Positions 6,441 to 7,468 of a stretch of DNA of 7,468 nt are shown here, piece after piece. The position numbers were made by a program, and so were the translations under genes. The first letter of the stretch is position 1, and the number at the start of each line of letters is the position of its first letter. A model generated the notes under the pieces. It saw only the letters and a list, made by a program, of their open reading frames with translations. It did no database searches and was not told where the DNA came from. Origin of the DNA: an uncultured archaeon. Its GTDB lineage: Archaea; Asgardarchaeota; Jordiarchaeia; Jordiarchaeales; Jordiarchaeaceae. The stretch covers positions 1 through 7,468 of the forward strand of contig CAZECW010000107.1 in the NCBI GenBank assembly GCA_964510585.1, in the 5' to 3' direction.

Positions 6441-6728
6441 GTGTGTGGCTCCAATTCAAAGGAATCAATTTATGTCATTAGAAAAATGAGTGTTCCTCAC
6501 TGTGCAAGGGGGCCTCTGAGATGCGAAAAGTGTAGAATTATGGAAAAAGAAGTGAAAATATGCCTGTTGAAAGTCCATTTTGAGCCGGGGGAAATTACGC
6601 GACCAGTGATCGATATTTATGTGAATGGAAAGAAAAAATTCTGCGAGTACGACCTCATAAAAACATTTGAGAACGAAAAAGAAGCAAAAGAGTATGCCGA
6701 GAGGAATATGTTAAATCTCCTAGAATAA
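6441..6728 (+). CDS. Small Cys-rich hypothetical protein (HC-x6-C-x2-C motif)
   Basis: 95-aa ORF with GGAGGT RBS at 6429-6434; PHCARGPLRCEKC cluster; helical acidic/basic C-terminus (FENEKEAKEYAERN). Start could be GTG 6441 or ATG 6486. Confidence 0.65.
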   Translation: MCGSNSKESIYVIRKMSVPHCARGPLRCEKCRIMEKEVKICLLKVHFEPGEITRPVIDIYVNGKKKFCEYDLIKTFENEKEAKEYAERNMLNLLE

Positions 6729-6880
6729 ATAAACTCAGAGTGTTTTTACTCTACGGGTGGAAGAACATTTTTTCTGGAATCGAAGTCTCTCAAGGCAAAC
6801 TCAGCTATATCTGCTAAGATTGTTATTATAGCTTGAAATTCTGTATTTAAATAAAAGTTGTATCCCCAAAAAATTGTGAT

Positions 6881-6899
6881 AAAAAAGATGAGAAAAAAA
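6881..6899 (-). terminator. Oligo-T tracts, probably the original ssb terminator
   Basis: Minus strand TTTTTTT (6899-6893) and TTTTTT (6886-6881); the first would begin about 10 nt after the ssb stop once the 326-bp element is removed. Confidence 0.5.
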
Positions 6900-6907
6900 T
6901 AACTTAC

Positions 6908-7233
6908 AAAGACGGGTGCTCAGAAAGCCCCCGACTTTAATCGTGGGGATGAATGGACAAAGATTTAAAGGTTTTCCGCTAAACACTGTATATTAGATGT
7001 GGCTCGGATGTCCAAAGGCTCGAATAAGGCTCCAAGCCGAGACAGGCAGAGAAGGTTCGAACATTTAACGATAATCCCAAGTCCCACAAGGGACAGGGAT
7101 AACTGGGTGGTGGCACACCCATTGCAGATAGCCACTGAGCGGTGAAGGAATGAACGCTTAAACGAATGTATCCCTGAGCGTTGAAGGAAGCTGTGTGCAA
7201 GAATCCCCCGACTTCAGTCGAAGGGAGTGTCAA
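6908..7233 (+). mobile_element. Non-autonomous IS200/IS605 (IS608-like) mini-element, 326 bp
   Basis: Target TTAC at 6904-6907; left-end guide AAAG (6924-6927) at the foot of hairpin CCCCCGACTTTAATCGTGGGG (6928-6948); right-end guide GAAT (7201-7204), hairpin CCCCCGACTTCAGTCGAAGGG (7205-7225) and terminal TCAA (7230-7233). This is the IS608 end code. No full tnpA or tnpB lies between the ends. Confidence 0.88.
7008..7145 (+). pseudogene. 45-aa in-frame ORF, probable internally deleted tnpB remnant
   Basis: MSKGSNKAPSRDRQRRFEHLTIIPSPTRDRDNWVVAHPLQIATER*. The PSPxRDRDNWVVAHPL tail resembles TnpB C-terminal tails as I recall them, and it sits just upstream of the right end. Not verified by search. 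Confidence 0.5.
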
Positions 7234-7235
7234 AT

Positions 7236-7468
7236 CTACCTTCTTCTGCTATTTCTACTACCGCCTCTGTCTCTTCTGAATGGTTTTCCTGTGTATTGTG
7301 GGCGTTCTCCTCCGCCGTATCTTGGGTGGGGTCGGCGTTCCTGTTCGTATACTCGGTTTGAGAGGTTGTTTTCTGTGTTGACTTCTGCGGGTGTTTCCTC
7401 CTCTATTTCTTCCATTGTTCCGTATTTTCCAAGGTTTAGTCTTAGGGAGCCTTTGAAAACTGTTGTGT
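7236..7468 (-). CDS. ssb: Single-stranded DNA-binding protein (OB-fold, Sulfolobus-like SSB), 3' part; runs off the window
   Basis: Not in the ORF track. Frame 7466 to 7236 reads TTVFKGSLRLNLGKYGTMEEIEEETPAEVNTENNLSNRVYEQERRPHPRYGGGERPQYTGKPFRRDRGGSRNSRRR*. TTxFKGxLxLNxG matches the last OB-fold strands of crenarchaeal-type SSB, followed by an R/G-rich tail. Stop TAG at 7238-7236. Confidence 0.78.
   Translation of the reverse strand, partial: TTVFKGSLRLNLGKYGTMEEIEEETPAEVNTENNLSNRVYEQERRPHPRYGGGERPQYTGKPFRRDRGGSRNSRRR

Follow-up and report, generated by a model that had tools for sequence, protein, structure and literature searches.

Does a gene-less stretch of DNA at the 3' end of ssb encode a stand-alone guide RNA for the nuclease TnpB, and if it does, is ssb what the guide is for? 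The question is raised by the right-hand part of contig CAZECW010000107.1 (C107) of an uncultured Jordiarchaeaceae archaeon. The window analysed here is that entire contig, 7468 bp, from a genome (G000) of 3.78 Mb in 217 contigs. The initial annotation had placed a possible TnpB omegaRNA cassette at 6955-7255, with a guide antisense to ssb, and had suggested that a TnpB supplied in trans might cut ssb alleles lacking the element or affect ssb expression. Positions 6908-7233 of the plus strand are a bona fide insertion of a gene-less, IS608-like derivative of the IS200/IS605 family, that is, a palindrome-associated transposable element (PATE). It probably carries its own promoter and a TnpB omegaRNA scaffold, is moved and served in trans, and has a guide aimed at its own empty site; the match to ssb is a by-product of where it landed, not a regulatory design.

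A gene-less IS608-like insertion

The element, a non-autonomous PATE of what is called here the A-type, is 326 nucleotides (nt) long and is delimited by copies with the same ends and by empty orthologous loci. Directly 5' of it stands TTAC (6904-6907, plus strand), the target and cleavage motif of the transposase TnpA and the predicted transposon-adjacent motif (TAM) of TnpB. The left-end module (6924-6948) consists of AAAG (6924-6927) and a bulged hairpin, CCCCCGA..TCGTGGGG (6928-6948), and is near-identical to the left end of the tnpA-bearing copies C169, C162 and C7. The right-end module (7201-7233) consists of GAAT (7201-7204), a second bulged hairpin (7205-7225) and AGTG-TCAA up to 7233, and is invariant across A-type copies, B-type copies (a sister family) and the tnpB-linked copies C81 and C8. 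No subfamily departs from the tetranucleotides AAAG, GAAT and TCAA. The left and right hairpins repeat each other in direct rather than inverted orientation, and there are no terminal inverted repeats in 6908-7233. The open reading frames (ORFs) inside the element (6979-7233 and 6801-6986, both on the minus strand) matched no family in a Pfam search. All sequence features that the initial annotation had named (TTAC, ACAAAGA-TTTAAA, the tnpB tail, the right-end hairpin, TCAA and the flank) lie where it put them. Its cassette needs correcting at one side, since its start, 6955, leaves the left end out.

With 6900-7240 as query, a genome search recovers three to four further A-type copies (C58, C32 and one split over C162 and C21), for a total of four to five, which are 81-91% alike. 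The B-type family, with elements of 275 nt, comprises 38 near-complete copies and about 90 half-copies at contig ends, or roughly 80 elements. The genome thus holds about 85 A- and B-type cassettes versus a handful of tnpB genes, a ratio of approximately 20:1. Every copy follows one pattern, a start directly after TTAC and a terminus in GAGTGTCAA; TTAC stands before all but two or three of the 84 left ends of both subfamilies, and TCAA is the stop point of all 74 mapped right ends. The spacing from left to right end is 270-333 nt in assembled pairs and 1757 nt in C81. The B-type repeats are also the main cause of the fragmented, 217-piece assembly, because most contig ends fall in them, with about 90 lying inside B-type elements, roughly 136-140 nt in.

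The orthologous locus of the congeneric sister species G003 is an exact empty site, ...GTAACTTAC|ATCTACCTTCTTTTGCTG..., without target duplication. The orthologous locus in G004 is empty as well, and its TTAC has decayed. That the same ends recur at three to four other loci, that left ends are preceded by TTAC, and that the empty site in the sister species is precise show that the element is no chance arrangement; the shared ends, the TTAC/TCAA code, the direct-repeat hairpins and the exact empty site identify it as an IS608-like, gene-less insertion.

The DNA sequencing runs that contain the locus are hot-spring metagenomes. The insertion is present in four of these from four studies, including one contig that is about 3.6% diverged, and its junctions are bridged by metagenome contigs, the left in X1, X2 and X4 and the right in X3 and X4. 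No joint that skips the element, as an empty allele would, occurs in the contigs of the four metagenomes, a result that speaks to presence only. The diverged X4 strain, which has the same insertion, has two A>G changes, each in a single contig: one at 7232, within the TCAA of the right terminus, and one at 7251, in flanking DNA past guide base 16.

The omegaRNA scaffold and its candidate promoter

Within the element, a remnant of the tnpB 3' coding tail, TIIPSPTRDRDNWVVAHPLQIATER up to its stop codon, lies at 7068-7145 on the plus strand and is recognised by its likeness to the TnpB tails of C81 and C8. The frame ..TIIPSPTRDRDNWVVAHPL.. matches ..GTIIPNPSWGRDNWVVAHPLLL.. in C81 (also read GTIIPNPSWGRDNWVVAHPL) and ..NWAMAHPLEV in C8. 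The conserved core AACTGGGTGGTGGCACACCCATTGC is, by this likeness, a leftover of the tnpB 3' coding end, since the same core occurs in both tails. The NWVVAHPL remnant, together with the way the element aligns to the 3' regions of tnpB in C81 and C8, indicates that the scaffold derives from the 3' end of tnpB and reaches the right end of the element.

The scaffold itself (7063-7233, plus strand) comprises stem 1 (7076-7100), stem 2 (7104-7121), a long stem 3 (about 7122-7199) and the right-end hairpin. A covariance model, R1, was built from three tnpB-linked 3' ends only (C81, G004:C193 and G001:C274), and it matches 7063-7233 of the window at full length with 100.6 bits and an E-value of 2.4e-24. 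R1 matches all A-type and B-type copies tested and also finds the more distant tnpB 3' ends of G005 (E-values 2e-8 and 4e-7). Among the 41 genomes searched in the phylum, 19 contain the scaffold family, with at least 68 matches in G000, 19 in G003 and 15 in G004.

In an alignment of seven sequences across A-type copies, C81 and sister-species copies, 92% of the cells in the four helices are paired, versus 34-48% in slid controls. Compensatory changes, on both sides, occur in 11 of 32 pairs, and the covariation score is 0.35, against 0.15 for shuffled and at most 0.10 for slid alignments. The fold of the window RNA beats its own shuffles (z = -2.4). An omegaRNA-like pseudoknot would result if the UGGCA loop of stem 2 paired, as its sequence allows, with the UGUCA at the 3' end; both segments are invariant, so that no covariation signal is possible there. 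These results support the view that the element keeps a complete TnpB omegaRNA scaffold. About 170 nt are conserved, whereas TnpA would need only about 35 nt of the right end.

A candidate archaeal promoter precedes the scaffold. Its box, ACAAAGATTTAAA (ACAAAGA-TTTAAA, 6957-6969, plus strand, with TTTAAA at 6964-6969), resembles a transcription factor B recognition element (BRE) and TATA box and aligns both with AAAAAGTTTATA, which autonomous copies have between left end and tnpA, and with the B-type AAAGTTTATTT. In the tnpA-bearing copies C169, C162, C7 and C15 the left hairpin is directly followed by AAAAAG-TTTATA and then by tnpA, and the B-type has AAAG-TTTATTT at the same position. It is therefore plausible, from this shared placement, that the promoter recognised by the initial annotation is the transposon's own, now driving the scaffold. 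The predicted transcription start lies near 6994. A second TATA-like box, TATATTA (6989-6995, plus strand), could be an alternative promoter; its position is conserved, with TATGTAA or TATATAA in B-type copies and TATATTG in tnpA copies. Between promoter and scaffold is a leader (6996-7062, plus strand) that may be removed by processing. It has no recognisable coding similarity to tnpB or tnpA and is only loosely alignable to the B-type. In the A-type copy split over C162:24314-24531 and C21:1-398, an AT-rich insertion of about 150 nt lies just after the promoter region, flanked by a repeated GGTAAA(T/C)(G/A)CTGTG; it recalls the small mobile repeats that target Haloquadratum PATEs (PMC3119063).

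Promoter and full scaffold are kept in every assembled copy, and two separate deletion derivatives retain both, the A-type from the long form of the scaffold and the B-type from the short form. The proposal of the initial annotation, a derivative that has lost tnpB and retained an omegaRNA scaffold, thus held up: the scaffold folds, covaries and matches a model of tnpB-linked RNAs, it has a weak full-length match to the Rfam family sot0042, and the promoter-like box has been kept where autonomous copies have their tnpA promoter.

Guide, trans-acting proteins and competing explanations

The predicted guide is the first 16-20 nt of the right flank directly after TCAA, ATCTACCTTCTTCTGCTATT (7234-7253, plus strand), a length assumed from characterised TnpBs. 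The same flank overlaps the end of ssb, of which the window holds the last 76 codons and the TAG stop (7236-7468, minus strand, with the stop at 7238-7236, read as CTA on the plus strand). The guide covers this stop and the last five codons and is predicted to be complementary to the 3' end of the ssb mRNA. The reason is one of position: insertion took place 2 bp beyond the ssb stop codon, with element and gene in convergent orientation. No two of the 74 mapped right ends have the same sequence after them, and the special relation to ssb that the initial annotation proposed dissolves into a general one, with about 85 cassettes each having its own flank-derived guide. In the empty site of G003, ..AACTTAC|ATCTACCTTCTTTTGC.., TTAC is followed by 15 of the 16 predicted guide bases, which bears out TTAC as the target motif and predicted TAM.

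Proteins that could act on the cassette are encoded in the same genome, as the initial annotation had suggested for TnpB. The Y1 transposase family (PF01797, Y1_Tnp) has four matches, of which three are full-length (113-129 bits), and the tnpA copies share their left end with the element. Five matches to the TNB domain of TnpB were found. A tblastn search points to a multicopy element with tnpA and tnpB that is broken at contig ends, with 5' parts on C169, C7 and C162 and 3' parts on C8, C45, C54 and C152. In C81, tnpB comes with a long-form scaffold, the nearest one to that of the A-type. For the B-type scaffold the nearest is the short form found behind C8-type tnpB.

Upstream of the C81 tnpB, in frame, is a degenerate tnpA remnant in which YIQ replaces HUH and the N-terminal strand is missing. 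Remnant and full tnpB are joined in an open frame of 557-571 codons (C81:5075-6787, minus strand) that runs uninterrupted across the entire omegaRNA region, its stop codon being a TGA created immediately beyond the right end (TCAA|TGA). A functional TnpA-TnpB fusion enzyme was considered and rejected, given the state of the TnpA part. It is more likely that the tnpA part is an in-frame remnant and that TnpB would start at an internal Met before ERTNTF.

Every member of the TnpB clade to which these genes belong (copies from C81, C8, G005, G002 and G004, including intact sister-species copies) has Gly in place of the canonical RuvC-II glutamate, reading IVCGDL, IVLGRL or IVVGNL versus LALEDL in the unrelated TnpB of C204. 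Asp is retained at RuvC-I and RuvC-III, as is the zinc finger, and the missing Glu might be replaced by one that lies about 60 residues upstream in a conserved RIAE motif. By analogy, the clade resembles the 'rearranged RuvC-II' (RIIr) clades, for which an alternative Glu has been proposed to compensate and which are predicted to be active (Altae-Tran et al. 2023). The notion that the cognate TnpB is nuclease-dead was not accepted; the Gly occurs in all members, intact multicopy genes of sister species among them, and matches these published clades.

It is probable, then, that an internal deletion removed tnpA and nearly all of tnpB and kept the left end, the promoter that follows it, the last 25 or so tnpB codons and the non-coding stretch up to the right end, the latter two together encoding the omegaRNA scaffold. 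Y1 TnpA from autonomous copies in the same genome would move the element as single-stranded DNA to sites 3' of TTAC. The element's own promoter would drive a plus-strand RNA through the scaffold into the flank, and TnpB from intact copies would process and bind this RNA in trans. Its guide of 16-20 nt (AUCUACCUUCUUCUGC..) would match only the scarless empty site TTAC-ATCTACC..., with TTAC-ATCTACCTTCTTCTGC as the predicted target. Following excision by TnpA, the empty site would be cut and repaired from an occupied sister copy, and the cassette would be kept.

A number of points weigh against this proposal. The promoter, the ends of the RNA and its processing are predictions from sequence. Rfam gives a single match in the window, to RF02656 (sot0042) at 7069-7225, which spans the whole 174-position model with an E-value of 0.0079 and a score of 23 bits, far under the gathering score of 88, so that the window RNA is a distant look-alike and not a family member; five sister loci gave no omegaRNA-type match in Rfam. 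The R1 model was built because of this sub-threshold score and the sister copies without a match. Each subfamily may stem from one founder, in which case the retention of the scaffold would amount to only two independent events. The multicopy element with tnpA and full-length tnpB was never assembled whole in this genome. At RuvC-II the whole clade has Gly, in C81 the adjacent Asp is missing as well, and nuclease activity is a prediction by analogy. Finally, stem 1 is partly mismatched in the A-type copies C58 and C32, and some copies may be decaying. The last point, together with the predicted nature of cassette transcription and the mutual identity of A-type copies of only 81-91%, would also fit an inert relic, a mobilisable or formerly mobile PATE with no functional guide RNA, whose scaffold survives through recent deletion and the need for a right end. 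The nearest tnpB, that of C81, lies beside a degenerate tnpA, and the PATEs of Haloquadratum shrink to terminal-only forms of 52 bp that still seem mobile, which suggests that the scaffold is dispensable for transposition (PMC3119063). Against such a relic stand the compensatory changes that keep four helices paired across A-type, C81 and sister-species copies, the conserved position of the TATA box, and the conservation of far more sequence than the right end needed by TnpA. Two independent derivatives kept promoter and scaffold, and no terminal-only minis occur among about 30 assembled pairs of left and right ends. An inert relic is thus an unlikely description of the element.

A different possibility is that the cassette modulates ssb, by convergent transcription or antisense pairing, or through a catalytically altered TnpB that acts as an RNA-guided repressor. 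Archaeal transcription terminates at oligo-T runs, and the T-rich runs on the ssb strand at 6866-6899 (T6, T6 and T7, minus strand) are likely the original ssb terminator. In the empty site of G003 the same runs directly follow the ssb stop, and in the window they have been pushed 326 nt away. Because of this displacement, and since no plus-strand run of four or more A occurs in the element, transcription of ssb probably traverses the entire cassette, in the antisense direction to the putative omegaRNA, before reaching the terminator; any consequence of this is speculation. The convergent orientation, the stable retention of the insertion in several populations and a TnpB clade without the canonical RuvC-II Glu could also be cited for such a role. 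At the occupied locus, the target is preceded by ..GTCAA and not TTAC, so a TnpB, dead or alive, should not bind its own locus, and regulation of the window copy of ssb at the DNA level is unlikely, counter to what the initial annotation had entertained. A second ssb locus exists, with its 3' end on C131 (tail ..RGSYRGGGRR and stop); it was rejected as a target, having no TTAC and a guide match at positions 2-11 only (10 of 16 bases). The Gly is clade-wide in mobile, multicopy elements with intact ends, unlike domesticated TldR-type regulators. Nor is ssb singled out, with about 85 cassettes at unrelated places and 72% of guide positions intergenic, versus 24% of random TTAC sites on a crude ORF map, an excess that would be expected from purifying selection on insertions. 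A role in modulating ssb is therefore most improbable. It is very unlikely, too, that the approximately 85 cassettes form a distributed guide-RNA library shared by few TnpB genes, of which some guides, for example the ssb one, have been co-opted to tune neighbouring genes; if true, an archaeal relative of eukaryotes would here be seen at an early step towards using TnpB guides as a host. The gene-less cassette with a guide for its own empty site is the preferred explanation. As far as computation reaches, the anatomy and homing logic of the initial annotation are supported, the special significance it gave to ssb is not, and neither a genome lacking a cognate TnpB nor a scaffold that fails to fold or to match omegaRNA models, which it had named as grounds for abandoning it, was encountered.

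Guides that overlap ORFs on the same crude map are antisense in 16 cases and sense in five. At least nine long convergent ORFs enter B-type elements, share the element-encoded tail ..DTLRD before the stop, and end 17 nt inside the right end. B-type right ends with such ORFs include C64:9539, C99:138, C214:139, C8:16990, C153:139 and C72:9911, the last with an immediate TGA stop provided by the reverse complement of TCAA. Insertions at the 3' ends of genes may be tolerated since the right end supplies stop codons.

The identification of ssb rests on the N-terminal half of the gene, of which 95 amino acids encoded on C202 and C26 match the Sulfolobus SSB structure 1o7i (a single OB-fold, E-value 2.7e-15) and NCBIfam SSB models; the 76-residue tail in the window (ending RGGSRNSRRR and stop) gave no Pfam match by itself. 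There are two near-identical ssb loci or haplotypes, seen at C107:7234-7468, C131:15770-15978, C202:29569-29853 and C26:11918-12202, with two upstream contexts (C202 and C26) and two 3' ends whose downstream contexts differ (C107 with the element, C131 without) and whose encoded C-terminal tails read RGGSRNSRRR versus RGSYRGGGRR. All four contigs share the central coding sequence, and it is because this is common to two loci that C107 stops inside ssb. The upstream genes of the window are ordinary and comprise an FGGY-kinase C-terminus, HpaB, a Nudix/NrtR-type regulator, a phosphoribosyltransferase-like gene and a TPR protein. A 95-codon ORF (6441-6728, plus strand), placed between the gene for this TPR protein and the element, encodes a small Cys-containing protein (..HCARGPLRCEKC..) that matched no Pfam family; the DNA of this region is 81-91% identical in G003 and G004.

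Relation to known mobile elements and guide RNAs

The element is real and of a kind that has been described before, and it is best seen as a well-resolved further example. It reveals no new principle. Its value lies in being a clean natural case of a 'guide-only' IS605 lifestyle: both ends are present, the scaffold covaries, a putative promoter belongs to the element itself, the empty target and its predicted TAM are identified, and the genome offers candidate TnpA and TnpB in trans. As such it is a convenient system for asking whether a trans-acting TnpB protects gene-less elements from loss, and it would let the rules for TAM and guide be measured in an archaeal TnpB clade whose RuvC-II is rearranged.

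The closest parallel in the ends is ISHp608 (IS608), an IS200/IS605 element of Helicobacter pylori. Its code of four tetranucleotides, which is taken here to be TTAC/AAAG/GAAT/TCAA, equals that of the present element, a match made by sequence only. According to work attributed to Barabas and colleagues in 2008, the IS608 end code reportedly comprises TTAC at the left and TCAA at the right cleavage site, with AAAG and GAAT 5' of the hairpins. Both elements have bulged subterminal hairpins, lack inverted repeats and cause no target duplication. IS608 differs in carrying tnpA and tnpB in about 1.8 kb, whereas the present element is archaeal, gene-less and 326 nt long.

The PATEs of Haloquadratum walsbyi, also archaeal, are IS605 derivatives without a transposase that occur in many copies, have palindromes near their ends and do not duplicate the target; some include the tnpB 3' coding end (PMC3119063). 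Many of them are reduced to 52-bp terminal-only forms, whereas here the promoter and full scaffold persist in all assembled copies. The sotRNAs of Halobacterium salinarum (RF02656, sot0042; PMC4615843) also lie over the 3' end of an IS1341-type tnpB and end at the right end of the transposon. At 23 bits versus a gathering score of 88 they are distant relatives, and in the present element the tnpB gene has been deleted. The TldR-type regulators, domesticated from TnpB, are nuclease-dead, with an inactivated RuvC; they have lost transposon ends and the ability to move, and direct a fixed guide at a host promoter. Here, intact ends occur in many copies, RuvC-I and RuvC-III retain their Asp residues, and the predicted guide targets the element's own empty site and not a promoter.

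The nearest known systems are stand-alone omegaRNAs. That such RNAs act in trans, and that PATEs often encode omegaRNAs, has already been published (PMC10691335, PMC10055086), and effector-less omegaRNA loci of OMEGA/TnpB systems are described by Altae-Tran et al. 2021, here as summarised in PMC10691335, and by Meers et al. 2023 (PMC10055086). Like the present element, these loci have been mobilised without transposase and nuclease genes and have kept their ends, with the scaffold abutting the right end, a guide derived from the flank, and a compatible TnpB elsewhere in the same genome. Trans function in the present family is proposed by analogy with them. What sets it apart is a hot-spring archaeon as host, about 85 cassettes, a candidate archaeal BRE/TATA promoter of their own, and a TnpB clade with Gly at RuvC-II.

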